A DNA stretch of 64,000 bases from Candidatus Latescibacterota bacterium. GTDB taxonomy: Bacteria > Latescibacterota > UBA2968. Shown piece by piece: positions 32,742 through 50,774 of this stretch. Below the pieces are notes generated by a model, which was not told where the DNA came from, did not search any database, and saw nothing but the letters and a program-made list of their open reading frames with translations. The stretch spans positions 5,568,001 through 5,632,000 of the forward strand of contig OZ240241.1 in NCBI GenBank assembly GCA_965198115.1, read 5' to 3'. A program made the translations under genes and the position numbers. Positions within the stretch are counted from its first letter, which is position 1. Every line of letters begins with the position of its first letter.

Positions 32742-35700
32742 TTAGAAGGAGCCGAGCGTTTCGGCTTCCATGAATACGGCAAGCTTCAGGATCTTCGTGC
32801 CGATGTCGCCAGCATCGATATGGGCGATGTAGATGCCGCTCGCAAGGAGCACACCCTGATCGGTTTTCAGGTCCCATTCCTCCGTCGGCAACCCGTTGTC
32901 GTGCATGATCGTCCGCACCAGGTCGCCAGCCATCGTAAACAACCGGATCGTCGCCACGCCTGGCAGGTTCGTGAAGCGAACCTTCCGTGCCAGCGACGAA
33001 GACTCGAAAGCCGACCGTCCCAGATAGGGGTTCGGCACGGCCAGCACCTTGTTCAAGTCCACAATGGCCAGGTCCTGATCCCCGACGATGCCGGGCGTCG
33101 TGTCGAACGAGAAAACATCGCCCGGGACATTTACGTGGTTGGCAATCATGAGGAAACTGTCCCCGTCCTCCGGGAACCGTGCATCCTGACGGCGGTTGGC
33201 GAAGACCATCCACATAACAGGCATCACCGGGTCGTCCGGAATCAGCCCGTTCGTTGTCAGGACCTCGTGACTCGCCTCACCCGCATTCGGATCCGTGTAG
33301 GGCAGGTCGAGCACGAAGAGCCATTCACGTGCATCGAACGTGCTACCTACGTCCCCATTGTAGGGGGGGCCCCACGCCCCGTTCACCAGACCCGCTGCCC
33401 GGTTGTTCTCCAGAAACCCGACTTCGAGACGTCGGGGCGGGCTGGCTTCGACATCCCAGGCGGACACCATGATCGGGTTCCGTTCCTGGAAAATGTATAC
33501 GCCGGCCCCGTCAGTATTGATGATGTAGCTGCTCCAATCGTAGGGGACCCTGGACGTCGTCAGATCTGCCGGGGCGGGGGGGTCCGCTCCGGCCGAGCGC
33601 AGATAGCGATATCCGTAGGACACGTTCTCGTTGCTCAGATCCAGCGGCTTGTAGAGGTTCTCGCCGTCCGTCTGGTCAACGCTCGTGAATCTGAGCTCAA
33701 CCGTTCGAAGGTCGGCAGGTGTCGTCGACACCCAGTTCGAACTGAACCAGAACGAATTCGGATCACCCGTGATCGCGCCGTTGAAGCCTTCGGCCTCGAA
33801 TCCGTCGGCACTAGCCCAGGTGATCCACCGCGAGCCGGTCGGAATATCCCAGTCCTTCATACCTTTCGGCGGACCCAGCACCTTAACGAGCACACCGTCC
33901 GCAATCGGGTTGGCAGCGGCCTAGGCGTCCGTCGCAGCCTGCGGCAACCCCTCGAGGAGGGTCGCGCCGGTCGCGCTGTTGATCAGATCCCAAACGACCT
34001 CACCTGCGACATCCCGGAAAACAACCTCGTAGGAGTTACCCGTTACCCGCGAGGGATCGACCAGGGTAATACCCACGGAGCCATCGCTGTTACCCGATGT
34101 GTGAGCAGCCATTGTGTCGGCACGAACCGGGTCATACGTCGTTCCCGCGAGAGGCGGTAACGGCATGATGCCCAGGGCATCTTCGGTCTCCGTCGACAAC
34201 GCTACCTGACGCCCGTCCTTCAGGACGTTGATCGACGTCTCCAGCGTCGTCGGGTTCGCGGTCAGGTCGACGCCGTAGGCCGTCACCGCATAGTAGTAAA
34301 CGCGGTTCGGACGAGACGTCCACCCAGCAGAGCGTCATCGGTTAGCTCGACATAGTGCTGGACGCCGCCGTCGGTTCCGAATTGTGCCGGCCGCGAAATG
34401 ACGATCCCGGACGACTCATCGAACTGATCATCGAAGATCACTTTCTGACCGTTGTCGATGTCGTAGGTGGCGATTCGCATCCAGGGACCGGCCGGAGTCG
34501 ACCCTTGATACACGTTGTAACCCTCGAACGGGTAGGATCCCGAGCTATTCTCGGAATCCGTACCCCACGTGAGGATGACTTGACCGTTGCCCTGCCTATC
34601 ACCCAGAGAGGAAATTGCAACCTTCGGTGCGGCCGGGGGCTCCGGAGCCTGAAAGTCGTTGTCGAACGTCTGTTGCGCCGCCGAATCGAAAAACCGCAGC
34701 GCGGTGATACTCGACAGACGATCCTGACCCTGCGCGGCGATGATGGCGGCCACGACCTCCTGCGAATCGCCTGGTGCAAACGTGAAAGGCCCCGACGACA
34801 ACATGAACCGGCGGTCGGCCGGGTTGGTATCGACCCATCCCGACCCCGTCACCGGGTCTCCAGAGAGAACGAAGGCCGTCACAGCGCCCGTTGTCGGGTC
34901 CGTGTGGTCCGTCGTCTCGCCGTCGGGATCGATTCCCCTCATGTAGTTGTAGGTCTCGCTCGGCGTGTGCGGGTCGGTTCCGTTGATGTACTTGTTGAAC
35001 GACGTCATCGGGAGCTCTTCGCCGTCGTCACCGATCGGACCCTTGAAGAAATCATAGCCGACCGCAGGCGGCGTGTTGCCGTAAACCTGGTCGTTGTTCG
35101 TCGCATTGAAGCAGAATCCGAGACTCGTCTCCACATCGCACCCGACCAGGTCATTATCGAACTGACCCAGATCCGGATCGGACCACAGCGAAATGTAGGT
35201 GCTGTCGATCTGGTTCCCGCCCTTGTTGATCAGCAGGAACTTGATGAACACGATGTTCCCAAGTGGGCCGCTTCGGTTGAACGCGAACGTTGTCTGCTGG
35301 ACTTCGATCCCCAGCGGATCCGTCTGTCCCGCGTCGTTCGTGTGCTTCGTCGGGTTCGCGTCGTTGTAAACGGTCCAGATCGTCTGGTACCATCGGATCG
35401 CCGTTCGCATCGACCGGCGCGCCGTCCTGCGACGGCCAGTTCGCCCAGTCCGGGTTCTCCGGGCCATCGCCACGATTGATCTTGTAGACGCGATACTGCT
35501 CCGCATCCGGATCGGCCGGTGTGCCGTCGGCCAGCATCGGCCCCGGCTGGTACTCGTGGCTGTACTCGGCGACTACGATACGGGTCTCGCCGTTCACCTT
35601 ACCGCCCACCCACAGACCTGAGGCAAAGACCGCCGTCCGTCCCGACCCCTTCAGGAACTCGAAACCCGAATTACCCGTCGGGATATCCCAGGCGAACGAG

Positions 35701-35864
35701 CCCTGGTTCGTGACGAACATGGAGATGTTGTTCACATCGATCGAGATATTGTTCACGAGCTTGGCGGCACGCGGCCGGAAGCCGGGGTTTCGGCCTTCGG
35801 CTGGCCCCGCGTGGGCGAAAACCAGGGCCGCCATCATCGATATCAGTATTGCACCACGTTTCAT
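32742..35864 (-). pseudogene. Large secreted T9SS-CTD protein with FN3-like segment; two frameshifts and an in-frame TAG
   Basis: Four track ORFs join into one protein: signal MKRGAIL; shift near 35390; shift near 34310 (PNRVYYYAVTAY); TAG 33921-33923; CTD AVPNPY...WDL...ASGIYIAHI...KLAV. Confidence 0.8.
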
Positions 35865-35882
35865 CCTGTTATCCCTCGTTGG

Positions 35883-38776
35883 TTAGAAGCTGAGTGCAAA
35901 GCCGAGGCGAACCTGGCGTGGTGTTGAGAAGTTGCGAGGATTCTTTTCCTTCAACTCATAAAGATTCCTGCCCTGCTGACCGTGCGTCGCGATAAAGTCG
36001 GCACCATCGGGCGTCGACAGCCAACCGGTCGTGAGTGGGCTTCCCGTCGCCGAGTAGACCTGCGACTCGAACCCGCGGCTGTCCGAGTCCCGAGCAGCCA
36101 CGTTCGCTCGGTCGAGCAGGTTGATCGCCCAGATGTAGAAATCTACGCTGTAGCGGCCGATCACGAACGCCTTGTTGGCCTTGGCGTCGATCCTGAACTG
36201 CCACGGGCCGTTTGCAGAGTTCAGCGGCCCCGTCGGACGCTCCGTCACGTTCGCCAACGTGATCTGATTGAAGAACACCGTCGGCGTGTAGGGGAACCCG
36301 CTACCGGCACGAACAAGGACATTCAGGCCAGCGTTTGCGAGCGGGTAGCCGCCCATGAAGTGAGGGCCGTCATCTGCCGTGAATCGATAGTCGACCGACC
36401 CCGTGATCTTGTGACGCTGATCGTAATCGAGCGGCGCGGTCGACTTCGGAGGCTCGGTTACACCGGCCTGGAAGGTCCACGCGATGTTCCGCTGCGTTTG
36501 CGGGCCCGATCCGGTTCCCGAGGCGTAGCCCAGACTGTAGCCAAGCCGAAGCGTCATCCGGTCGGAGCGACGCATCTGCGCGGTCACGTCCACCCCCTTG
36601 ATCGTTCCGAAGTCTCGATTGCGGAACGAGGTGAAAGAAGACGGATTCGATGGAATCTGCGTGACCTCGACGAGGTTTTTCACCGACTTGTAATACGCCG
36701 TCACTCCCACGCTTGCTCGGTCGCCAACCTGCTGGTTGATCCCAACCTCATACGCCGTCGTCTCCTCGGGCTTCAGGTTGGGATTCCCGAAAGCGTAGTA
36801 GTAGCCACCCGTCGGAGCCTTGTGCTCCAGGTAGGCGAGTCCCACGTAGAGGTCCTCCAGGTTTGGCTGCTGGAAGAACTTGCCATAGTGCACGTGGAAC
36901 ATCGTCTTCGTCGTGACGGGAAAGCCCAATCCGACGCGGGGGCTCAGCTTGTGATGGATCTCGTTGCCGGCCAGATCGCCAGAATCGAGCGTGTCATCGC
37001 CACCCAGGGGCGTTCCCTCGTCGCGGAGCACGTCGGTCTTCGCGTTCAGGTAGTCGTAACGAAGACCCAGATTCACGACAAGGCCTTCGTACTCGATCTT
37101 GTCCTGGAGATAGACGGACCCCAGAATCGGCTTCTTCCGATCGTCACGACCCGAATTAAGGGGAACGAGTTCCCGGTTGGTATAATCGAAGATGTAGCCA
37201 TATCGATCGACATCCAGAAAGCCGCCGGGATGATCGGCGTCCCCGTAGCCACCCCGCCAGGTCTGCACGGGGAAGAGATGCCTGTAATACCGGAGATAGT
37301 GATACTGCAGGTCGAACCCGGCCTTGATCTGGTGGTTGGGGTCGACCTGGCTTGTGATGTCGAAGTCGATCGGCGTCACGTAGGTCGACCGGCTCTGCTC
37401 GTAGTCGTCCCGAACATAGCCTTCGTCACCTGTCACGAATCCATCGGCGTCCAACCCAAGCGGCGTGGACGCGTCGTCTCCCAGGCGGAACAGAACCGTA
37501 TCATCGAACAGCGGGTTCCCGCTTGGCCGGCCATAGGCGAACAGGTCGTCGAAATGTGTCCCGTCTCCCTGCTTTCTCAGGCTGCTGAATCCGTTGCCCT
37601 GGACCGTGAAGAACGTCCGCGGGTTCAGCGTCCACGTCAGCTTTCCGAACAACGAGATCGTTCGGTCCTCGGTCGTGGCGGAGTGGTCCAGATCGAAGCG
37701 GTAGCTGTGAATGTAGCTCTGCCAATCGTCGGACGTCATAATGCCACCGACCTTGAAGTCCGCCCGGTCGTTCAGCCGATAGGTCAACTTGGCCTGACCC
37801 GTCCATCCTTTGAGTTCGTGGTGGGGCAGGAGCCCGTCACGAAGGAGGTTGAACTCCTCACCAGACAGCATGTCGCGCTCGAAGTCGTGCGCCTCGACGC
37901 CCCAGCGGGGTCGTCTGTCGGTCTGGTCGCGACGCTCCGCGGACACGAAGAACGTCATCTGATCGGACCCCGGCAGCAGCGGGCCGCCCAGTGCACCATC
38001 GATGTTGGAGTGAAGACTGGGCTGGTGCGCCTTCCTATGGCTACAACTTCGTCTGTGATGTATTCGACGGAACCCGAGTAATCGCGGCCACCCTCTTTCG
38101 TCACCACGTTCACGATACCGGACATCACACGCCCATACTCGGCGTCGAAGCCGCCAACAGTCACAACGACCTGGTCGATCGCGTTGCTGTTCAGCGACGT
38201 GGTGGACCGACCAGACTGCAGGTCCTTCTGGGACACGCCGTCCACGTAGAAATCGACTTCGGCAAGTCGCCCACCACGGATATAGAGGTTGCCGTCGTGG
38301 TTCGTCACGCCTGCCTGCAGGCTCGCTACACCAGCGAATCCCCTGAGCGGCAGCGCTTCGATCTCTTCGGCTACGACAATACGGGTCGAAGACGTCTGAT
38401 CCTTCTGGACCAGGGGCGCCTCTGCCGTCACGACCATTGCCTCGACTTCCAGCGTCATCGTGGGGAGGACGAAGTCCTGCTTCGTCGTGAAGTCAGGCGT
38501 GATCCGAACATTCTGGACTACGACGTCCTGATGCCCGATGAACGTGGCCTTGAGCCTATACGTGCCACCCAACACGTTCAGAATGAAGTACTCGCCGTTC
38601 GAATCCGTGGTCGCACCGATCACGGCCGGGCCGTCGGTGATGACCACGTTGGCCCCGGGCAGCGTCTCTCCCGAATCGGAGGTCACTTTACCCGAGATCT
38701 TCCCGGTCGTCCCCGCATCGGCGAGCGACGGCAGGACGAACAGGAGTGCGAGAATCAAAGAAAACCTTCTCATCAT
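35883..38776 (-). pseudogene. TonB-dependent receptor, split at about 38000-38050 by an inversion plus a 1-nt shift
   Basis: AGTTGKISGKV...LPGANV, IRGGR, GGFDAEYG..SGIVNVVTK (plug); QDKIE, SPRVG, GNPNLKPE, PRQVRLGFALSF. Confidence 0.85.
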
Positions 38777-38856
38777 CGCGTTCCTTTCGTTGTGGAATAC
38801 CGATTGGTACAACTCTTGCAATGAATTTCCGGCTGAAAGCAACAGCGGATCTTCAA
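38773..38856 (-). CDS. Candidate Cys-rich small ORF MKIRCCFQPEIHCKSCTNRYSTTKGTR
   Basis: AGAGGAG SD 7 nt before TTG 38856; TGA overlaps the TonB-receptor ATG. Confidence 0.35.
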   Translation of the reverse strand: MKIRCCFQPEIHCKSCTNRYSTTKGTR

Positions 38857-39220: not shown

Positions 39221-39850
39221 TTAAGCGACGATCTCGTTCCGAATCGCGTAGTGTGTGATCTCCACGTTGTTCTTCAGCTTCATCTTGTCCAGCACCCGTG
39301 AACGATAGGTGCTCACCGTCTTGACGCTCAGGGCGAGCTCGTCGGCCAGCTCGCTCACGGACTTCCCGGAAGCAATCCCGCAAAAGACCTGATACTCCCG
39401 ATCGGAAAGCGATTCGTGGGGCGGCCCATCGTGAATCTCGAGCTCGAACGCCAGCTTCTCCGCCAGCGATTCGCTGATGTATTTGCGCCCGTCCGCCACG
39501 TTCCGCACCGCCTTCACCAATTCCTCGGGCGAACTCTCCTTCATAAGATACCCAGACGCCCCGGCCTTGAGCGCCCGAATCGCATACTGCGATTCGGGAT
39601 AGATGGTAAGGATCAGAACGGGCAGGCGAGGGGCTTCCCGCTTGATCTGCTTCAGAACCTCCAGCCCCGTTGCGCGTGGCATCGAGATGTCCAACAGGAC
39701 GACATCGAACGGTTCATCTCGAATTTTCTCGATGACCTGATGCCCGTCGGCGGCCTCCCCGATCGGCAAAATGTCGCTCGTCTCGGCGAGGATCTGCTTA
39801 AGACCTTCTCGGACGATGACGTGATCGTCCGCAATCAAGACCCTGATCAT
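39221..39850 (-). CDS. NarL/LuxR-family response regulator
   Basis: IADDH, LLDISMP, GASGY..K; LSDREYQV...LALSVKTVSTYR HTH. Confidence 0.95.
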   Translation of the reverse strand: MIRVLIADDHVIVREGLKQILAETSDILPIGEAADGHQVIEKIRDEPFDVVLLDISMPRATGLEVLKQIKREAPRLPVLILTIYPESQYAIRALKAGASGYLMKESSPEELVKAVRNVADGRKYISESLAEKLAFELEIHDGPPHESLSDREYQVFCGIASGKSVSELADELALSVKTVSTYRSRVLDKMKLKNNVEITHYAIRNEIVA

Positions 39851-41888
39851 ACCCGGCTCCTCGGCGCCTCGAGAGGCACCGTCACTTCAATACGCGTCCC
39901 CTTACCGGAAAATCCGGTAATGTCGATCTGTCCCCCGATCGCACGAACACGCTCCTTCATCCCGACGATCCCGAAGGCACTGGGATCCTTCATCCGATCC
40001 TGTGAGATCCCGATTCCGTCGTCCTCCAGCGTCAGTTCCAGCCGGTCATCCGTGGCCTGCAGCGACACTTCGAGGGCCTTTGCCTCGGCGTGACGAAGGA
40101 CGTTGGTCACGGCTTCCTGGAACACGCGGAACACGGCCGTACCCGTCTCCGGATTGACGTCGATCTCCTCGGGCGAAAAAACGACGCGGCTCTGAATGCT
40201 CGAGCGGCTCCCGAGGTCGTCGAGCAGCCATTCCATCGCCGCCGACAGCCCGAGGTTGTCGAGCACGGCGGGTCTCAGCTCCGAGCAAATCCTGCGCACC
40301 GATAGGATCGTTTCATCCACGAGACCCGTCATACCGAGCAGACGGTCCTGAATCGCCCGATCGGGCTCGCCCAGACGGCGTCCCACGAGCGACAGATCCA
40401 GACGGAGAGCGGTCAGGTTCTGGCCCAGCTCGTCGTGAATCTCTCTGGCGATCCGTGTTCGATCGGTTTCGCGAACCGATTCGAGGTGGGTCGACAGATT
40501 TCGTAGCTGTTCTCGCGACGCCAGGAGCTGTGCCTCGACCTCCCGTCGCTCCTCGACTTCCTTCCTCAGCTCTCCGACGACGCCTTCGAGCTGGAGCGTC
40601 CTGCTGTGGACTCTCTCCTCGAGCTCGGCATTCAACCGCCTGATGCGGGCCTCGGCCTTTCGCTGCTCGGAAATGTCACGGATGATGCCCTCGACGCTGA
40701 CGACCGTGCCGTTCTCGTCGACCACCGGCACCTCCAGGACTTCGATCAGCCGTGTTTCGCCATCGGCGTGCAGGACCTCCACCTCGTGAACGGGTGGCGA
40801 GCCCCCCTCGAGCGCCTCTCGATCGAATCGATCCACGTCCAGGTTGGTCGGACTGTCCGCCAGGGTGGCCCTGAACGACCGCCCCTGCATGTCCTCCGGG
40901 TGGTAGCCGAGAACCTGCGTCACCGACGGGCTGGCGTAGGTCACGGTCCCGTCAGCGTCGTGCGTGTAGAAGAAGTATTCGTTCTCCAGGCCTTCGACCA
41001 GACGACGATACTTCTCCTCGCTCTGCCGGAGCGCTTCTTCGGTCCGCTTTCGAGCTGTGATGTCCACGAACACGGCCATCAGGACGCGCTGATCGCCCAG
41101 GTCGATGGCCGTCAGAAACGTCTCCGACACGTATTCGGAACCGTCGAACCTGCGGCTGGTCCATTCGAATTGATTGCTGCCCCGTTCGTAGGCTTCGGCC
41201 ATGTAGCGCTCGGCCAGCTCCCAGGACGGGGATCCGTCCGGCTGCGAGGGTGGCGACAGTTCTGCGGGGTGTTTGGACAGCAGATCCGCCTTGTCCCGAG
41301 CCCCGTAGACCCGAACAGCCTCCTGATTGCAATCGATGAACCGTCCATCCTCCTGTCGCTGGACCGTCACGCCGCACATCACGCCGTCATACAACGCGTA
41401 GAGCACGGCCTCCGTCGGCTTCATCTGATCGGGTGAAAGCGGACGGGGGTCGGCGCGACCGATCATCCGCATCAGTTTCTGTTCCGCGATCAGCCGGGCA
41501 TCGATCTGAGCCCGGGTGTGTCGCGCCCGCCGAACGACCGTCGGAAGACTCGACAACCCACCCGAGTCGGTCGTCACGACGTCCACGACACCCTCACGAA
41601 GCCACGCATCGAACGATCGGTCGTCTCCCGGGGCGACCAGCATCACCACCGGGAGCGCAGGCGAAAGGTGCCCCCCCTGCCTGATTTCTTCGAATATCTC
41701 CGGTGACGTAAACACCGCTTCGGGCGCAGAAAACAGCCCGGCCTGAGCTTCCTCGGGGTCGAAGCCTCGTGGACGTCGTGGCATCCCAAAGTCGGATCGC
41801 CAGTCAGTCCATCCCTGACCCTTTCACGAACATCCACCGTCGTGTGACAAACGAGCACGTGCCCCTCGCGAACCCTGATATGGTTCAT
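39847..41888 (-). CDS. Sensor histidine kinase (degenerate REC, 2 PAS, HisKA_3, HATPase); apparent frameshift at 41755-41758
   Basis: REIHDELGQ, QEAVTNVLRH, DDGIG, GIVGMKERV; one extra C joins MNHIRV...HEAST to PEEAQA...LPVVML. Confidence 0.85.
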
Positions 41889-42065: not shown

Positions 42066-42893
42066 TCAATCCTCGTCGTTTTCCTGCGCCTCCATCGCGC
42101 CCGAGACCAGACGGTCCACGACGTCCGGGCTCAACAGGTTGAGCCAGGGCAACACACGGAGTTTCCACGGCACCACCAGCTCGCGTTTCCGTTGGGACAC
42201 GGCATCCAGAATCGCCCGGCTGCACGCTTCGAGCGAGATCGATTCTTTGCTGTGACCGCGTCGGCCCTCACCCACGGTCCCACCGTCCTTCGCGAAGGCG
42301 TTAGCCCGCAAGTGGGTACCACGCAACCAGTGTGGCATCACGGTCATCACGTGGACACCCGACCCCTTGAGCTCTTGCCGCAGCGTCGAGAGGAAGCCCA
42401 CCACGGCGTGCTTCGAGGCGACATAGCCGGAATGAAGCGGAACACCGATCTTACCCTGGATCGACGACACGGCCACGATGCTGCCCCTCGCCGTTTTCAC
42501 GTGGGGCAGCGCATAGTGGAGGGGGTAGACGACGCCGAGGTAGTTCGTCTCCATCAGCCGTGCGTAAATGGCAGGGTCCTCGACCTCGTCGAACCTCGCC
42601 CACATGCTGACCCCCGCATTGGCGATGAACAGGTCGATCCCCGACCCGTCGGCTGTCGCGACCTCGACCAGCCGCCGACAGTCGTCCAGCGACGTCACAT
42701 CGCCCACGACGACCTGCGCCTCCCCGCCCGCCTGCCTGCATCGCGCCGCCACGTCCTCCAGCTGAGCGCTCCGTCTGGCGAACAGGGTCGACTTCGCACC
42801 CTGTGCCGCCAGGGCGGCAGCCAGGGCGGCTCCCAACCCCGAAGAGGCGCCCGTGATGACGACACGCCGGGCCCTGGTCGGCTCAGTGGTCAC
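42066..42893 (-). CDS. SDR oxidoreductase, candidate acyl/alkyl-DHAP reductase (DHRS7/7B-like)
   Basis: TGASSGLG, ARR, NAGVS, SSIQG, YVASKHA; GTG overlaps the AGPS stop. Confidence 0.8.
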   Translation of the reverse strand: MTTEPTRARRVVITGASSGLGAALAAALAAQGAKSTLFARRSAQLEDVAARCRQAGGEAQVVVGDVTSLDDCRRLVEVATADGSGIDLFIANAGVSMWARFDEVEDPAIYARLMETNYLGVVYPLHYALPHVKTARGSIVAVSSIQGKIGVPLHSGYVASKHAVVGFLSTLRQELKGSGVHVMTVMPHWLRGTHLRANAFAKDGGTVGEGRRGHSKESISLEACSRAILDAVSQRKRELVVPWKLRVLPWLNLLSPDVVDRLVSGAMEAQENDED

Positions 42894-44665
42894 GACGATG
42901 GATCTTCACCAAAAGCCCCGTTTCGCGCCCCGAAGACGTTTCCCGGATCGACGGCGCGCTTGGTTTCGCGCAACATCCGCAGCCCGGCCTCCGTCTGGAC
43001 CTGCGGAAGAAACCCCTTCCGGATCTTGCCGACCCCGTGGTGATGGGACAGAGACCCTCCACGATCCATGATCGCCTGGCGTAGCGCGTGTTCGATCCGG
43101 TGATATACGTCGGCCGGGTCATCCAGGCCGCGCCCGCTGAACGCCAGAGTGAAGTAAATGCACACACCCGTGTGGTAGGTCTGGGTCACGCGATACGTCA
43201 GATACGGCCGGCCTTCCACATCGTGTGCAGCGAGCTGGCGGTCGAGCTCCTCCCGCACGCCGTCGCACACCTCGTGAATGCGATCCCACGGAACGGACGT
43301 CTCGAACGTCTCGCCCAGAATCCCGAACTGCGTCACGAAATCCCGGATATACGCGATCCCGAACGTCAGCGAATACCCACGTTTTCCGTTGCTCGCCCCC
43401 GCGCTCAACCCCCCGAACCGTTTGGCCAGACCGAAAATGACCTTCTCCTGCGTGCGTACCTCTTCGCGGGTGCCCTCCATCACGATCGTACAGCCGACCA
43501 TCTTGTCCGCGTCGAACTTCTTCACCTTGAACAGCGCGAAGTTCTGAATCTTCGACTTGAGCTTCTCTCCGCCCTCGGGCGCGGGCTTGAGCGCCTGACC
43601 CATTCGGAGTTCGAGATTGTTCACGAGCCGGATGCTGGCCGGAAGCGTCCCCGTGCGCCGAAGCGCCTTCAGGAAGTCGACGCCCTGAGCGAAGTCGGCA
43701 AACAGCAAGGCACCATACTCACGCGCCTCGGGCAACGGGTGGATCTTCATCATCGCCTTCGTGATGATCCCGTAGTTCCCTTCGCTCCCGAAGAGCAGGC
43801 TGCGCGGCTGAACACCCGTGGAATTGCGCGGCGTCACCGAACGGGTTTCCACGTCGCCACCGGGTGTCAGGAGCGTCGCCTCCAGAACGATGTCTTCGAT
43901 GTTCCCATACCGGTTCTTTTTCATGCCGCTCGCATTCGTGGAAATCCATCCTCCCAGCGTCGAAAACTCGATGCTGTCCGGATCGTGTCCGGTCGTGTAT
44001 CCCTTCTCTCCCAGGTCGAGTTCCATCTGCTTACCCGAGATGCCCGCTTCGATGCACGCCAGTTGGTTAGCTTCGTCGATCCACAGAATGCGATTCATCC
44101 GGCGCACATCCACCGAAGCGATCAATCGGGTCTCGTCCGGTGGGCAGGCCAGGGCGCCGCTCACGTTCGTCCCACCACCGAATGGAATCAGACAGACGTC
44201 GTGCTCGGACGCCAGTTCGACCACGCGTCTCACATCCTCCTCGTGAAGCGGGTAAATCACCACATCCACGACCCGGTCCAGCTTGCCGCCATTCAGCAAC
44301 CTGAAGATCTCGTCCACACTCAGCTGACCGTGGCTGTGACTCAGTCGGGCCTTCGCGTCCTGACTCACCTGATCGTCCGAAAGCGCTTCTCGCACGCCGC
44401 TGACGAACGCCTCGTTGGCCACCGGATCGGGGAGCGAGTAGTCGACTTCCTCATCAGCCAGGTGGTCTTCGGTGAACGGCACCTTCAGGACACCCTCCAC
44501 GAACGGAATCAGATAGGGCATACTGAACCCCGAGATCGGGTAGCGGTCCCCCGTCACTCGAACGCTCTGGGGTCCATCGAATTCGAACCGTGTGTCGGTA
44601 TATCCCCACTTGTGCAGATACCGCTCCCCCTCGCGAGGGTCGTAGTAGGTTTCGAGCTCCTTCAC
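42890..44665 (-). CDS. Alkyldihydroxyacetone-phosphate synthase (AGPS), FAD-dependent
   Basis: KWGY, PFGGGTNV, GHDPDSIEFSTLGGWISTNASGMKKNRYGNIED, IAYIRD, FETSVPWD, RVTQTY..GVCIYF, SHHHGVGK; GTG 44665 overlaps the upstream stop. Confidence 0.9.
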   Translation of the reverse strand: MKELETYYDPREGERYLHKWGYTDTRFEFDGPQSVRVTGDRYPISGFSMPYLIPFVEGVLKVPFTEDHLADEEVDYSLPDPVANEAFVSGVREALSDDQVSQDAKARLSHSHGQLSVDEIFRLLNGGKLDRVVDVVIYPLHEEDVRRVVELASEHDVCLIPFGGGTNVSGALACPPDETRLIASVDVRRMNRILWIDEANQLACIEAGISGKQMELDLGEKGYTTGHDPDSIEFSTLGGWISTNASGMKKNRYGNIEDIVLEATLLTPGGDVETRSVTPRNSTGVQPRSLLFGSEGNYGIITKAMMKIHPLPEAREYGALLFADFAQGVDFLKALRRTGTLPASIRLVNNLELRMGQALKPAPEGGEKLKSKIQNFALFKVKKFDADKMVGCTIVMEGTREEVRTQEKVIFGLAKRFGGLSAGASNGKRGYSLTFGIAYIRDFVTQFGILGETFETSVPWDRIHEVCDGVREELDRQLAAHDVEGRPYLTYRVTQTYHTGVCIYFTLAFSGRGLDDPADVYHRIEHALRQAIMDRGGSLSHHHGVGKIRKGFLPQVQTEAGLRMLRETKRAVDPGNVFGARNGAFGEDPSS

Positions 44666-46611
44666 GCTGGCGTCCCTCCCGATCCCGAGTCGAACAAAGT
44701 CGTGATGTGGACGGCCTGCAGCAGGGCGGCCGCTTCGGCCTGCACACGTAGCGATCGACGTCTGGGCAAAAGGGTCGTCTCTCCCACGATCGGGGGCGAA
44801 ACGTAAACCTCGACTTTGCCCGGGCTCAAATCCGTGTTGCCCATCGGGCACCGCGGCCAGAGCGCATAGATGCCTCGGTAAGCAAAGGGCACGATGATTG
44901 CGTCCTGTGGGATCAGGGCAAACATTCCGTGTTGGAGCGGAAGACTCTGCAGCCCGAAAGCCGACGTCGTGCCCATCGCGTAGATCACGCCCGGCCGCGA
45001 CCGCATGGCCGTCGTCATCTCCCGTGTCGTATGGCGACCAAGTCCGGTTCGATCGAGCATCACGTAGCCGTCTACTTCCTTCTGGTAGCGATCGAACGTC
45101 TCGGTCGACATCCCGAACATGTTGACCGACCGGCCTCCCAACCGAATCCCCGGAATCAGTCCCGTCTTCGATAAGATCGAACACGGCCGTGAATGCTCCC
45201 AACCCATCGCCGATAGCAGGGCCGGGTGTTGGAGAACGTGATAGAAAACCAGATGGTCGAGCAGATTGCGGTGGGTGGGAGAAAACAGGATGGGTACCCC
45301 GTCGGGGCCGAGGTCCAGATGCCGCGCAACGCGTTCGAATGAAGGGTCGACGGTCACATCGACGTGAATACCCAGCGTCTCGAGCGCGTCGTTGGCGTAG
45401 TCGATCCAATACGCCCACGCGCGTGCGTGACGCGTCTGAAGATCCGGATCCGCTTCCTCGGCCAGTTTCTTCTTGACCCGACCGTAGCGGAGCGACCGCC
45501 AGACCCACGCCCCCAGACGACGCTTACTCGTCCGCGATCGATCTTGATGTTTTCCGACGTGCGCGTATTCCGTGAACGCCCCCTGTGCCCGGTTCGTGAT
45601 GAGCGGGGGGACGGGAATCCTTTTCTCATCCGGCAGATACCGATCGATCAATCGGTTGACCGTCCGGGCGAGTCGCACACTGCCGTCGATCATTTCGCGC
45701 GTCAAATAGCTGTACTCCGACCCATACCAGTAGTTCTGAGGCTTGATACGGCTCGGGTCCTCCTGGTGAGCCTGGACCCACTCGATCATCACCGCCCGAG
45801 CCCGCGGAAAGGCGGTTCGGATCTTTCGAACCAGGATACGCGCCTTTCCCCGATCCTCGAGTCTGGCGAGCTGCAACTCGGCTTCCAAAAATACACGCCA
45901 GACACAGCACCCGAACCACGAGAAGTTGGTGTAGACGTTATAACGTGTCGCCACGAGGCCGCCGGCGGCCACGTAGTCCAACGTCGCACCAGCCACCTGC
46001 GTAAGGGCCTCGCGCAGCGTATGTTCCTCTCTCCCGATCCTGAATCGCAGGTCCCAGATTGGCTCTTCGACCGTGGCCACCACCGCCAGGGCTTCGGCAA
46101 CGGCCTGCGCGTGTGACAGAGGGACGTGTGTGACACCGACACCACTGAGCGCTGCCTCTCCTACGTCGGGTGAAAACAGGTCACCTTTGGCCAACGCTTC
46201 CAGGTAGAGGGACTGATACATCTCGAGCAGCGTGGCCGCCGACCCGTGCCCACCTGACTCGAACTGGTCCTTGACCTGGAGGTAGAGCTCGGACCCTACG
46301 TAGTAGGCGTCCGCGAGACGATCGAAGTTCACCTGTGCTTCGCGTAGACGTTCCTCACGGCGTCCGGGCACTCCGCTTTCGAGAGCCTGAACCAACCGAA
46401 CGCGTCGTTCGAGCTGAAGCACCGGTAGTGGGCTCCCGTCAGCAGGGGTCGCCGGCCATCGAATATCGTCGTCGTCCCACCCTTCGTAATGGCCTTCCCG
46501 CCGACCCACCTCGAGGAAGGCCTGCGCGTGTTCATCGTATGTCCGAATGAGCGCTGCAGGATCGTCGAGCAGTCGTTCGTGGAGAGGACGTGAGTCCGGA
46601 TCGGGCGACAT
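44662..46611 (-). CDS. PlsC/GPAT-superfamily acyltransferase with a large unknown N-terminal domain (candidate DHAP acyltransferase)
   Basis: PTHRNLLD (HX4D), LDR, VIYAMGTT, IIVPF in the C-terminal part. Confidence 0.7.
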   Translation of the reverse strand: MSPDPDSRPLHERLLDDPAALIRTYDEHAQAFLEVGRREGHYEGWDDDDIRWPATPADGSPLPVLQLERRVRLVQALESGVPGRREERLREAQVNFDRLADAYYVGSELYLQVKDQFESGGHGSAATLLEMYQSLYLEALAKGDLFSPDVGEAALSGVGVTHVPLSHAQAVAEALAVVATVEEPIWDLRFRIGREEHTLREALTQVAGATLDYVAAGGLVATRYNVYTNFSWFGCCVWRVFLEAELQLARLEDRGKARILVRKIRTAFPRARAVMIEWVQAHQEDPSRIKPQNYWYGSEYSYLTREMIDGSVRLARTVNRLIDRYLPDEKRIPVPPLITNRAQGAFTEYAHVGKHQDRSRTSKRRLGAWVWRSLRYGRVKKKLAEEADPDLQTRHARAWAYWIDYANDALETLGIHVDVTVDPSFERVARHLDLGPDGVPILFSPTHRNLLDHLVFYHVLQHPALLSAMGWEHSRPCSILSKTGLIPGIRLGGRSVNMFGMSTETFDRYQKEVDGYVMLDRTGLGRHTTREMTTAMRSRPGVIYAMGTTSAFGLQSLPLQHGMFALIPQDAIIVPFAYRGIYALWPRCPMGNTDLSPGKVEVYVSPPIVGETTLLPRRRSLRVQAEAAALLQAVHITTLFDSGSGGTPA

Positions 46612-46632
46612 CGATTCTTCCTCCGGACGCGA

Positions 46633-48273
46633 TCAGGACCGGGGCTCGACGGCCTCGGCTTCGGCGTTCCCATACTTCAGCACGTGACGGCGGAGTCCGG
46701 GAATGTGAATTTCCTGCACGTACTCACGCCAGTCGATCCGGCTCACGTCTGTGTTGAAGCGGTGTTTGTCATCATCCGCGAGCTGGTCGAACACACGCTG
46801 AATGTTGCCCGTTTCGAACAGACAGTTCAGCGTGATGTAAGGGCCGTAGATCTCGCTCAGTGAAACCACACGTTCGACGGTAGCCTCCAGGCGAGAGAGC
46901 TTTCGGCTCCAGCGGTTGATTCTGTGCGTGGCCGGGAGATGATCGAGCATCCATCGACCGAGTGCGAGCGGCAGCTGGTAGCGAAGCTTGAGGCCCCGGC
47001 GAAACGCGCCCTGGCTCGGAAATCGCCAGCGTTGCACCGGAATCGCCCTGCCGTCGCGGTCGATTTCCGGGTTGTCCCTGAAGTATTCGTACACGTAGTC
47101 GAACATCGTCCCCAGGTGGATTGGGTTCCGGGATCCAGTCGCGACGTGATAGATCTTCACGTCCTCCTCCTCGTGCAGGTGGGGCAAAATGGACAACGTC
47201 GCGTTGGCCACCACATCCACGGGGATCACGTCCAGTACGACGTCCGGATCAGCGGGAAAATCGGCGAGGCGCCCCTTGCTGAAGTGGGCAATAAGCGGAT
47301 CGGCAACCTTTAGACCGTCGAGCCATCCGGGCTCAGGGTCACGAAGACTACTCTCGATGATCGAGGGCCTCACGATCGCCGTCGGCACGTTTCCTCGCTC
47401 GCGTACGATCAGTTGCTCGCCCATCGCTTTCGTCATCGTGTAGCTGTCGTGCCAGCCGTGACGCCGCCCACGACGGGTCCCCTCGTCGACGAGCTGTTTC
47501 CAGATCCAGCGCTGCTTCAGGGCCTCGATCTGGTGGCCCAACCGATGCGGTGTGACTCGCTTTCCGCGGTTCTGCCGGGCGAGGATCCGTTCGAACACGA
47601 CGCGTTGCTCCGAGGACTCGGCCTCCTCACGGACCGAGCGACCGACGGCACGTATCGCCTCGATCTCTTCATTCAGGTCGTAGGTCGGAGCCCGCCCGTC
47701 GAAAAGACGTTTTGCGATCGTTTCATTCGGAGTGAAAGGTCGTTCTGGAATCTCACCGGTCATCTGGCCGTTGACGTAGGCCGTCGAAAGGTAGACGAAC
47801 ACCGCGTCGTTGCAGCTCTTTGCGAAGCTCAAGACCCTCCCCGCTCCGAGCGTGTTCTGTTCGAGCGCCAGGTCGATCGGTTCGTCGAAGACCACCGTCG
47901 CTGCGCTGCTGATGACCACATCGACCTCTCCGCGCAGCGCGTCGACGACCGACGGGTCCATCCCCAGGTTCTCGTAGGTGAGCCCCTTCCACTCGATGGC
48001 GTGCAGTTTCTCACTGACCCGACTCGAGAATTCGTCCTGCCACAGCCGGCGAAGACCGTCGAACGCACTCGATTCGATCACCTCTTTCTGGACGCGTTCC
48101 TGAACCGAAATCACGACGCCGTTCGACAGTCGCCGAGGACGGGTGGGCAGGTAGATGCGTCTCACGTCGGGCGCGTGGCGAAGGATCTGGACGATCACCC
48201 CTTTGGCCACGAAACCGGTCGTGCCGGTAACGAACAGGGTCTTGTCGAGAAGAAATTCGGTGATCTTTTGCAT
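46633..48273 (-). CDS. Fatty acyl-CoA/ACP reductase (alcohol-forming FAR; NAD_binding_4 + Sterile domain)
   Basis: TGTTGFVAK, STAYVNG, YTMTKAMGE, IVRPSII, PGWLDG, DVIPVDVVAN, IDWREY...HIPGL. Confidence 0.9.
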   Translation of the reverse strand: MQKITEFLLDKTLFVTGTTGFVAKGVIVQILRHAPDVRRIYLPTRPRRLSNGVVISVQERVQKEVIESSAFDGLRRLWQDEFSSRVSEKLHAIEWKGLTYENLGMDPSVVDALRGEVDVVISSAATVVFDEPIDLALEQNTLGAGRVLSFAKSCNDAVFVYLSTAYVNGQMTGEIPERPFTPNETIAKRLFDGRAPTYDLNEEIEAIRAVGRSVREEAESSEQRVVFERILARQNRGKRVTPHRLGHQIEALKQRWIWKQLVDEGTRRGRRHGWHDSYTMTKAMGEQLIVRERGNVPTAIVRPSIIESSLRDPEPGWLDGLKVADPLIAHFSKGRLADFPADPDVVLDVIPVDVVANATLSILPHLHEEEDVKIYHVATGSRNPIHLGTMFDYVYEYFRDNPEIDRDGRAIPVQRWRFPSQGAFRRGLKLRYQLPLALGRWMLDHLPATHRINRWSRKLSRLEATVERVVSLSEIYGPYITLNCLFETGNIQRVFDQLADDDKHRFNTDVSRIDWREYVQEIHIPGLRRHVLKYGNAEAEAVEPRS

Positions 48274-48530: not shown

Positions 48531-48929
48531 ATGGACCGAACACTCATGATCATCAAGCCCGACGCCGTCCAGAAAAACGCGATCGGGGACATCATCAAAA
48601 GGGTCGAAGAGAAGGGTTTCGTCGTACGCGACATCAGGATGCTCACGCAAACCCCCGAACAGGCGGGTGAGTTCTACGAAGTCCATAGGGAGCGTCCGTT
48701 CTACGGCGATCTGGTCGACTTCATGACCTCGGGGCCGTGCGTGCCGATGGTCCTGGAACGCGACGACGCGGTCCCCTTCCTTCGCGAAGTGGTCGGTTCG
48801 ACCAACCCCGAAGAGGCCGCAAGCGGCACGATCAGGAAGGCGCACGGCGGCAACGTGCAGAACAACGCCGTCCACGCGTCCGACTCCCCCGAAAATGCCG
48901 CCACAGAGATCGCCTTTTATTTCGGGTAA
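48531..48929 (+). CDS. ndk: Nucleoside diphosphate kinase
   Basis: IIKPDAV, HRERPF, SGP, GTIR, NAVHASDS. Confidence 0.96.
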   Translation: MDRTLMIIKPDAVQKNAIGDIIKRVEEKGFVVRDIRMLTQTPEQAGEFYEVHRERPFYGDLVDFMTSGPCVPMVLERDDAVPFLREVVGSTNPEEAASGTIRKAHGGNVQNNAVHASDSPENAATEIAFYFG

Positions 48930-48933
48930 CCCC

Positions 48934-49452
48934 TTGAGTACGCTGATCATCGACCTTAAAGAGCTCGAAGAGGGTGAATCCACTTTCACGTGGGAGAGCA
49001 CGCCCGCAGACCTCGATCTGGCCGAGGCCGAGGTCGGGTTCGTGGGACCGATACAGACGGTCGCGCGTGTTCACAAGTTGGCCGATACGCTCTCTGCAGA
49101 GGGAGAGGCTCGGTATACGGTCGGCGCGAGTTGCGCCCGGTGTGACGAACCCATCCAGCTTCCGTTCGACACGAGCTTTCATTTCGTCTTTCAAAAAGGC
49201 AAGCCGCGGGGTGTGGAGGGCGACGAGGACGAGACCCTCATCTGGCTGGACGATGAATCGGATGAGGTCGATCTCGGAAACGAAGTTCGGGACTACGTGT
49301 TGCTCGAGATCCCCATCAACCCCGTGTGCAAGGAATACGAGTCCGGGACCTGCCCGAACCTCATCGAGGTCGAAAAAGCCGAGGCCGAAGCAAGCGATCG
49401 GGGGAAGAGCGACCCGCGCTGGGACGCCCTCAAAGCGCTCAAAAAGTCGTGA
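48934..49452 (+). CDS. yceD: YceD/DUF177 protein
   Basis: CARC, P..PVC...C, DPRWDALK; upstream of rpmF. Confidence 0.85.
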   Translation: MSTLIIDLKELEEGESTFTWESTPADLDLAEAEVGFVGPIQTVARVHKLADTLSAEGEARYTVGASCARCDEPIQLPFDTSFHFVFQKGKPRGVEGDEDETLIWLDDESDEVDLGNEVRDYVLLEIPINPVCKEYESGTCPNLIEVEKAEAEASDRGKSDPRWDALKALKKS

Positions 49453-49476
49453 GACGATCCTGACCAGGAGGACCCA

Positions 49477-49659
49477 ATGGCCCATCCGAAACGACGTAGT
49501 TCAAACTCTCGAACGGGGAAAAGACGCGCCAACTGGAAACTTCGCGCCGTCAACGCTTCGCCTTGCCCGAACTGCGGTGCCAGTCGACTCTCCCACCGAG
49601 TCTGCGGCAACTGTGGCTACTACAATGGCCGAGAGGTGACCGAAGGCGAGGGGCTGTAG
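49477..49659 (+). CDS. rpmF: 50S ribosomal protein L32
   Basis: MAHPKRRSS...CPNCG...HRVCGNCGYY. Confidence 0.96.
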   Translation: MAHPKRRSSNSRTGKRRANWKLRAVNASPCPNCGASRLSHRVCGNCGYYNGREVTEGEGL

Positions 49660-49677
49660 CAACACCCCCTTAGCGGA

Positions 49678-49702
49678 GCCTGCCCTGAGCGCAGTCGAAG
49701 GG
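49678..49702. repeat. Short REP-like repeat (CCTGAGC..GTCGAAGG class)
   Basis: GCCTGCCCTGAGCGCAGTCGAAGGG; near copy at 62946-62969. Confidence 0.6.
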
Positions 49703-49781
49703 TCTCCCCGACTCTCCCTCCAGTTTCCTTGGCTTCACACGAATTGCCTATATTCTGTCGGAATTTCTGGACAGACCCGCC

Positions 49782-50774
49782 ATGCCAAGACTACACGCCG
49801 CTATTACAGGGGTTGCGACCTACCTCCCCGAGCGCCGGCTGACCAACGCCGACCTCGAGAAGTTGGTCAAAACCTCCGATGAATGGATCCAGTCCCACGT
49901 CGGTATCCGCGAACGGCGCGTGCTCGATGAAGGACTGGGCACCTCGTTCATGGGCACAAAAGCGGTGCAGCACCTCCTCGAAGAGAAGGGCCTCGACCCC
50001 AAAGAAATCGACCTCATCGTCTGCGCGACCATCACGCCCGACATGATTTATCCTGCGACGGCGTGCCTCATCCAGGATGATATCGGAGCAGTCAACGCGT
50101 GGGGGTTCGACCTCGCTGCAGCGTGCGCCGGGTTCGTCTTCGCCCTGATCGTCGGGGCCCAGTTCATCTCGTCGGGCGCCCACAAGAAAGTCGTCGTCGT
50201 CGGTGCCGACAAAATGAGCGCCGTCGTCGACTACACCGACCGGAATACCTGTATTCTATTTGGAGATGGCGCGGGCGCTGTCCTGCTCGAGCCGGCCGAA
50301 GAGGGCTACGGCATCCAGGACTTCATCTTTCACGCCGACGGCAGCGGCCGCGACTGCTTGTGCCAGCCCGGCGGCGGCAGCCTGCATCCGGCGTCTCACG
50401 AAACCGTCGACAAAGGCATGCACTTCGTCCATCAGGAGGGACAGGCCGTCTTCAAGTTTGCCAGCAGTCAGATGGCCGAGGTTTCCGCCCGCATCCTCGA
50501 ACGCAACGGGTTGACCGGAGACGACGTGCAGCTGCTCATCCCTCACCAGGCGAACAAGCGTATCATCGCAGCCTGCGCGCGTCGCATGAAAATGCCCGCC
50601 GACAAGGTCCTCATCAACATCGACAAATACGGCAACACCACGGACGCGACCGTACCCATCGGCATCTGGGAGGCGGTCGACACGAACCGCGTCAGCCGGG
50701 GCGACTACGTCGTGCTCGCCACGGCGGGCGGCGGCTATGCCTGGGGAAGCGCCCTTCTCAAGTGGGCCTATTGA
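49782..50774 (+). CDS. fabH: 3-oxoacyl-ACP synthase III
   Basis: AACAGF, FGDGAGA, PHQAN, GNT, GGGY.WG. Confidence 0.95.
   Translation: MPRLHAAITGVATYLPERRLTNADLEKLVKTSDEWIQSHVGIRERRVLDEGLGTSFMGTKAVQHLLEEKGLDPKEIDLIVCATITPDMIYPATACLIQDDIGAVNAWGFDLAAACAGFVFALIVGAQFISSGAHKKVVVVGADKMSAVVDYTDRNTCILFGDGAGAVLLEPAEEGYGIQDFIFHADGSGRDCLCQPGGGSLHPASHETVDKGMHFVHQEGQAVFKFASSQMAEVSARILERNGLTGDDVQLLIPHQANKRIIAACARRMKMPADKVLINIDKYGNTTDATVPIGIWEAVDTNRVSRGDYVVLATAGGGYAWGSALLKWAY

Follow-up and report, generated by a model that had tools for sequence, protein, structure and literature searches.

Can a bacterial lineage build its basic membrane through acyl-dihydroxyacetone phosphate (acyl-DHAP)? Bacteria are held to start their phospholipids by acylating glycerol-3-phosphate (G3P) via PlsX/PlsY or PlsB, and the question is raised by a four-gene operon in a 64,000-nucleotide stretch of DNA from a Candidatus Latescibacterota bacterium of class UBA2968 (contig OZ240241.1, positions 5,568,001 to 5,632,000), hereafter the window. 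From its open reading frames and translations, we read four minus-strand genes in the order FAR, an alcohol-forming fatty acyl reductase (546 aa [amino acids], 46633..48273); a two-domain putative acyltransferase that we call the orphan (649 aa, 44662..46611); AGPS, a homologue of alkyl-DHAP synthase, also termed ADPS (591 aa, GTG start, 42890..44665); and a classical short-chain dehydrogenase/reductase, SDR (275 aa, 42066..42893). The FAR stop lies 21 bp before the orphan, and GTGA overlaps couple the orphan to AGPS and AGPS to SDR; the preliminary description of this DNA had reported the same coordinates, orientation and junctions. We hypothesized that this conserved operon encodes an acyl-/alkyl-DHAP route that likely produces 1-O-alkyl-glycerol-3-phosphate from DHAP and serves as the main phospholipid entry. 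With its activities and bulk flux deduced from gene content, we regard this reading as probable. If true, the core membrane lipids of a bacterial lineage would be made by way of acyl-DHAP.

The survey of operon genes and canonical entry genes covered 151 genomes of this phylum; 115 belong to the class of the window (its own genome included) and 36 lie outside it. Orphan and FAR are each present in 113 of the 115 class genomes, AGPS in 107 and SDR in 104; the corresponding counts outside the class are 2, 3, 1 and 0 of 36. PlsX, by comparison, exceeds the cut-off in a single class genome (one more lies below it) and in 33 of the 36 outside, while PlsY and GpsA are each found in 0/115 and 29/36. 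PF19277, the PlsB-type (GPAT) C-terminal region, was detected in 0/115 class and 0/36 outside genomes, in a search that picked up its control in E. coli only. Both class genomes that lack the orphan are incomplete, at 75 and 78%. Two near-complete genomes outside the class also lack PlsX, PlsY and GpsA; one (G003) has FAR and the orphan, and the other (G015) an ElbD-like FAR-acyltransferase fusion. The window's own genome consists of one 8.4-Mb contig with a completeness rating of 100%. As searches of it found no PlsX, PlsY, PlsB or GpsA, and as nearly all of the sampled class lacks them too, a loss that the preliminary description had missed, the operon becomes a candidate for the main phospholipid entry rather than an accessory one.

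The operon adjoins genes of fatty-acid synthesis. Divergent from it on the plus strand, ndk-yceD-rpmF-fabH (48531..50774) starts a fatty-acid cluster, with Pfam matches for ndk, yceD and fabH and with an rpmF that we take to be such from its L32 zinc ribbon. Only 122 bp separate rpmF (49477-49659) from fabH (49782), a slot often occupied by plsX, and translation of this gap revealed no plsX. We then read gene linkage in the best 80 of the 541 AGPS loci found in species-level genomes, most of them Candidatus Latescibacterota. All four genes stand in this order in 29 loci, and FAR-orphan-AGPS runs up to a contig end in 1 more; AGPS-SDR occurs with no orphan nearby in 38, and AGPS with neither in 12. 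SDR is present in 61 of the 68 loci having 2.5 kb downstream of AGPS. Of the 30 loci with the orphan, 18 have ndk in the flank, placing the operon beside fab genes there too. The arrangement is not a chance one, and these 29 complete loci, together with the class counts for all four genes, bear out the earlier expectation that the genes co-occur in relatives. Further afield, a Trueperaceae genome (Deinococcota; L068, 4328-12129) has all four operon genes, orphan included, with a fatty-acid desaturase gene behind them; this looks like horizontal transfer. Meanwhile, in Puniceicoccaceae and Trueperaceae metagenome-assembled genomes (MAGs; L077, 5358-10642, and L078, 3-3523), a FAR-PF01553 fusion precedes AGPS, and L077 also carries the same SDR after AGPS. 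An ordinary PF01553 domain fused to FAR precedes AGPS in two other phyla, and it occupies the slot taken here by FAR plus the orphan.

AGPS is the clearest member of the set. It carries PF01565 and PF02913 and matches mammalian ADPS (4bby) with 530 bits (6.3e-158, residues 18-582) and about 249 identities in 565 columns, or 44% by a hand count of the alignment; the match to ADPS 2uuu is 302 bits (8.5e-89). Glycolate/lactate oxidases reach at most 81 bits (7.9e-22 for glycolate oxidase), and the GlcD model scores 149 bits against a cut-off of 568, so we ruled out a glycolate or D-lactate oxidase. Residues H227, R346, Y504 and H541-H543 align with H300, R419, Y578 and H615-H617 of ADPS, of which R419 and Y578 were located through the mutant chains 4bc7 and 4bca. 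In ADPS, H300, R419, Y578 and H615 are active-site residues. H616/H617 are given as active site in PMC13019191. These positions are retained in 119-120 of the 120 listed homologues of AGPS, and a near-identical relative is placed in PANTHER PTHR46568 in a supplement of PMC13012113. Judged by its sequence, the window protein is ADPS-like and is predicted to catalyze the acyl-to-alkyl exchange. A hydrophobic N-terminal stretch, possibly a membrane anchor, occurs in 82 of the 120 homologues (P0070-P0189); the window AGPS does not have it.

ADPS acts on acyl-DHAP (bioRxiv 10.1101/2025.10.10.681575; PMC13596139), hence some enzyme must acylate DHAP. The orphan, for which Pfam and NCBIfam scans at 1e-3 and a sequence search against the PDB returned nothing, is our candidate. 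Searched with a profile, 1.84 billion representatives yielded 68 matches, seven near full length and the others shorter pieces, and no distant family was reached; the family has 69 members found, and conservation was computed over 68 sequences. PF01553 leaves a weak signal in 20 of 68 members (best 0.002), with 13.2 bits for the window protein versus a cut-off of 23. The structure model (pLDDT 89.3) is more telling: residues 357-641 (44689..45543) match Thermotoga PlsC (5kym) with Z 16.0 and a root-mean-square deviation of 3.0 over 223 aligned residues, followed by human GPAT1 (Z 9.6), tafazzin-type and plant GPAT chains. The Foldseek E for this domain is 2.7e-5, and it has language-model neighbours in PF01553. 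An HX4[D/E] motif is conserved, with H447 in 68/68 members and position 452 occupied by D in 56 and E in 12. By its predicted fold, then, the orphan is a GPAT/PlsC superfamily member and not GNPAT or PlsB proper; it may work like GNPAT, though it is not classified as such. That it acylates DHAP we infer from its linkage to AGPS and from the loss of GpsA. Its N-terminal domain (residues 1-349, 45565..46611; separate model helical, pLDDT 84.5) holds many polar residues invariant in 68 sequences (E152, R223, N225, N229, H282, E284, Y300, R305 and D309). This domain had no fold match at Z>=8, no Foldseek match at E<=0.001 and no atlas match; its best fold score, Z 7.5 to a designed helical filament, does not establish a new fold.

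The reductase at the head of the operon has PF07993 (NAD_binding_4) at 2e-54, PF03015 (Sterile) at 3e-14, a glycine-rich TGTTGF motif and Y278-x3-K. These features put it in the alcohol-forming FAR1/male-sterility family, and it would presumably make fatty alcohol from a CoA- or acyl carrier protein (ACP)-bound donor. It is also a stand-alone homologue, at 38% identity, of the N-terminal reductase domain of ElbD-like proteins. In the M. xanthus elb cluster, ElbD is a FAR-ACS-ACP-acyltransferase and ElbB a HAD protein, and the cluster is without AGPS (bioRxiv 10.1101/2025.10.10.681575). The window's own genome matches ElbD strongly in the reductase part only and has no ElbD, whereas sister-order genomes have ElbD-like fusions; no PlsA/Ger domain was found in the own genome. 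The route had been described as distinct from the ElbD, PlsA/R and Ger routes; as regards FAR, the separation from ElbD is incomplete, given its homologue at the N terminus of the ElbD-like proteins in a sister order. In a quick FAR tree of 23 rows, too weak to rely on, 11 orphan-linked FARs grouped with the long-branched L077 fusion (SH-aLRT 90). Two loci illustrate other conceivable sources of the alcohol. In a Gammaproteobacteria MAG (L041, 6084-9752), genes for an HMG-CoA-reductase-family protein and a PlsC-type acyltransferase lie ahead of AGPS, and the former could replace FAR by the same thioester-to-alcohol chemistry. In a Planctomycetota MAG (L072, 7896-17605), AGPS is followed by a gene for a 2601-aa AMP-ligase/polyketide synthase/terminal-reductase protein that could supply fatty alcohol.

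SDR, the last gene, has PF00106 at 1e-45, exceeds the cut-off of NCBIfam PRK06181 and keeps its S144, Y157, K161 triad in 120/120 homologues. Family membership is therefore as the preliminary description had called it for SDR, and the same can be said of its FAR, AGPS and acyltransferase assignments, the last confirmed by the PlsC fold and H447-D452 where the sequence libraries miss. None of the 31 PDB matches listed for SDR is named DHRS7B or Ayr1; many are 11-beta-HSD1 chains, and homologue names are generic. The predicted role as acyl/alkyl-DHAP reductase comes from linkage: AGPS is present in all 104 genomes with SDR, and the divergent AGPS of G107 has another SDR (32% identity) behind it. 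The eukaryotic acyl/alkyl-DHAP reductase is likewise an SDR, and the best DHRS7B match in Dictyostelium was not the active enzyme (PMC13256971). We disfavour SDR as a stand-in for GpsA, given seven genomes that lack both GpsA and SDR, though their Zn-dehydrogenase could fill the role.

Taken together, the gene products suggest the following sequence of reactions. First, the orphan, with its predicted fold and HX4D motif, would acylate DHAP at sn-1 from acyl-ACP or acyl-CoA. Second, FAR would reduce an acyl thioester to the fatty alcohol. Third, AGPS, with the homology and active-site residues described above, would swap the acyl group for this alcohol to give alkyl-DHAP. Fourth, SDR would reduce the sn-2 ketone; it may also turn acyl-DHAP into ordinary lyso-phosphatidic acid, a shortcut that orphan plus SDR could take beside the ether branch. 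Finally, a single PlsC-like enzyme (204 aa, the one PF01553 gene in the own genome), CdsA and CDP-alcohol transferases (five matches), all seen in the own genome, would complete alkyl-acyl phospholipids. Compared with the canonical entry (GpsA plus PlsX/PlsY or PlsB, then PlsC), the predicted product is of the same kind, a lyso-phosphatidic acid for the retained PlsC and CdsA, but the order is reversed, with DHAP acylated first and reduced later, and the sn-1 linkage is likely an ether. Compared with the peroxisomal route (FAR1 or FARAT, GNPAT, AGPS, DHRS7B/Ayr1), the same four steps are predicted; AGPS and FAR are clear homologues and the reductase is an SDR in both (PMC13256971). The orphan, in contrast, is not a recognizable GNPAT, with neither PF19277 nor PF01553 over threshold, and PEDS1/CarF gave no match in a search whose control was also silent.

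Several observations weigh against this reading. Since its members share descent, the class amounts to one or a few evolutionary events rather than to independent counts. Both gene sets occur together in G020, and G126 has PlsX. In the sister order (family f3), the orphan lies apart from FAR and AGPS in 15/15 loci with flanks of ~6 kb; there the FAR match falls inside an open frame of >1000 aa in 45 of 62 genomes, and the two such frames that were scanned are ElbD-like with their own acyltransferase domain, a second candidate for step 1. Half of the orphan is without an assigned function. Moreover, acyltransferase motif III is usually FPEGTR; the orphan has YPMGTT and thus no Glu, and column 546 of the family, assigned to this motif by eye, is M, A or other, with E never among the five commonest residues. 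Six genomes that show no obvious truncation at this point have the orphan but no AGPS (G003, G100, G102, G108, G127 and G136). PgsA-like genes, which require G3P, are present as well, yet glycerol kinase was detected in only 65 of the 115 class genomes and GlpD/GlpA in none of the five genomes searched; the source of G3P may be some unrecognized one. Among published systems, deletion of AGPS in M. xanthus lowers ether lipids only slightly, its route being a minor share (PMC9131029), and no ether lipids were seen in a genus that has elbD homologues (PMC11868695).

Two of the loci behind these points deserve a separate remark. The G126 gene (L129:8016-9053) is the sole class PlsX over the cut-off; its contig, 154 kb long, is a separate one in a bin rated 7% contaminated, the genome has no PlsY or GpsA, and the gene may be contamination. 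In nine of the nine sister-order loci read (L118-L124, L126, L127), lgt, for prolipoprotein diacylglyceryl transferase, directly follows the FAR/ElbD-like gene, and this Lgt is perhaps adapted to ether lipids.

The question of G3P bears on whether the orphan might instead be a PlsB analogue that uses G3P from glycerol kinase or an unrecognized dehydrogenase, giving a mostly diacyl membrane with FAR-AGPS-SDR as a side stream of ether lipid. The PlsC/GPAT fold cannot separate DHAP from G3P as acceptor, the PgsA-like genes imply a G3P pool, and the six genomes named above keep the orphan without AGPS. The 65 genomes with glycerol kinase include 29/29 family relatives and, in two pieces, the own genome. 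Yet 50 of the 115 have a match to neither GpsA nor glycerol kinase, GpsA loss accompanies that of PlsX/PlsY, and AGPS needs acyl-DHAP in a genome with only one other enzyme of the PF01553 type. We consider the PlsB analogue unlikely. The two pieces of the own-genome glpK are overlapping frames (L142:6463-8051), likely an assembly indel error.

The operon could also be accessory. The bulk backbone would then come from elsewhere, such as isoprenoid ethers of the archaeal type, made by GGGP synthase together with a DGGGP-synthase-like enzyme, or from scavenged lipids or an acyltransferase that escaped detection. In the own genome, a GGGP synthase exceeds the TIGR01769 cut-off (L140:7468-8217), and an unlinked DGGGP-synthase-like UbiA protein stays below its cut-off (L148:1411-2265); the AGPS operon of M. 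xanthus is itself accessory. GGGP synthase, however, occurs on both sides of the class boundary (108/115 and 31/36, 139/151 in total) and does not track the loss of PlsX/PlsY/GpsA, and we rejected it as the specific replacement. One query for a glycerol-1-phosphate-dehydrogenase-like gene found none in the own genome, while the fab cluster, PlsC and CdsA are retained and the operon stands beside fab genes in those 18 of 30 loci. An accessory operon therefore appears quite improbable to us.

Chloroflexota loci suggest yet another possibility, in which the unit runs backwards or in salvage and converts environmental or host ether lipids to acyl-CoA and DHAP. In L079 (4290-9758) and L080 (4241-9755), AGPS homologues (53% identity) stand directly behind a fatty-acid oxidation complex gene, and behind what we take to be a thiolase-like gene, a context that is possibly catabolic; several relatives also come from sponge-type datasets (bioRxiv 10.64898/2026.06.23.733905). 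No beta-oxidation or uptake gene is linked to the operon here, which adjoins genes of fatty-acid synthesis, and the established direction of FAR1-type reductases is towards the alcohol. Salvage would also leave the absence of PlsX/PlsY/PlsB/GpsA unexplained, and we give it very little credence. The biosynthetic acyl-/alkyl-DHAP route as main entry remains our preferred reading.

How new is such an operon? M. xanthus MXAN_1676-1675-1674 is an operon of AGPS, a FAR-GNPAT fusion and an NAD-dependent epimerase/dehydratase (bioRxiv 10.1101/2025.10.10.681575; PMC9131029). Both operons join AGPS, FAR, an acyltransferase and an NAD(P)-dependent oxidoreductase, and AGPS is similarly close to the mammalian enzyme, 42% there (PMC9131029) and about 44% here. 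The two differ in several respects: FAR is separate here and fused to GNPAT there (FARAT); the acyltransferase here is of a family missed by Pfam, NCBIfam and a published GNPAT survey and has an extra 350-residue domain; a classical SDR is last here, while an extended-SDR epimerase is third there; and the route is minor in M. xanthus, while here the canonical entry enzymes were not found. The same logic thus has a bacterial precedent, contrary to what the preliminary description implied. Its statement that bacterial AGPS-type genes have mainly been discussed for myxobacteria also needs correcting, as agps homologues are reported far outside that group, among them in 67 of the 92 Latescibacterota MAGs from the Black Sea (PMC11868695), and close relatives of the window FAR and AGPS are already in a supplement of PMC13012113. 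Moreover, agps is noted together with elbD in sponge Latescibacterota (bioRxiv 10.64898/2026.06.23.733905).

Latescibacterota account for 39 FAR and 32 AGPS mentions in the supplements of PMC13012113. On a contig of class UBA2968, genes 110 and 108 are plainly close relatives of the window FAR and AGPS; the intervening gene 109, like the class name, appears in no other of the 15 supplement files, and the GNPAT table has no Latescibacterota row. The absence of gene 109 from that table suggests that the survey overlooked the acyltransferase. A literature search over titles and abstracts, with subscription papers outside its scope, found nothing on the operon, the orphan or the loss of PlsX/PlsY/GpsA. 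What is known, then, is the chemistry and the myxobacterial operon; what we did not find in print is the acyltransferase family and the apparent class-wide replacement of the standard entry. The orphan is a testable enzyme that was missed by a GTDB-wide GNPAT survey, and because the published phylogeny omitted it, the finding bears on the origin of the eukaryotic pathway. The operon is also a candidate source of the C14-C18 monoalkyl glycerol ethers of unknown producers in sponges and marine water (bioRxiv 10.64898/2026.06.23.733905).

The genomes that have the orphan or an ElbD and no AGPS revealed a further module. Genes for HAD, Zn-dehydrogenase and Lar_N proteins lie behind FAR-orphan or ElbD in G003, G102 and G015. 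At 1e-80, matches to the 538-aa Lar_N protein occur in 7 of the 151 genomes (G015, G102, G003, G100, G108, G127 and G136; loci L125, L104, L100 and L150-L155), spread over four genera, and all seven lack both AGPS and SDR. Of the seven loci read, six have the order HAD, Zn-dehydrogenase, Lar_N. Three further class genomes count as lacking AGPS; their completeness is 75-91%, and one has the gene cut off by a contig end (L086). From this gene content, the AGPS-SDR and HAD/Zn-dehydrogenase/Lar_N modules look interchangeable, and the latter is a candidate second ether-forming module. A bolder proposal can be made: that the whole class gave up GpsA-PlsX/PlsY/PlsB for a largely ether membrane, using a new acyltransferase family in a DHAP route of the peroxisomal type, and that the LarA-like (Lar_N) protein is a second, flavin-free ether-forming enzyme, possibly the missing elb-type step. 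We hold this combined proposal to be less likely than not.

The remaining features of the window concern the surroundings of the operon. A promoter and terminator scan gave no signal exceeding shuffled sequence. Downstream on the same strand, 281 bp from SDR, lies a PAS/HisKA_3 sensor kinase gene with a LuxR-type response regulator gene (39221-41784), a pair not seen among the conserved neighbours at related loci. Further on, at 34283-38842, a TonB-dependent receptor gene and its neighbour are both split, likely by assembly indel errors.

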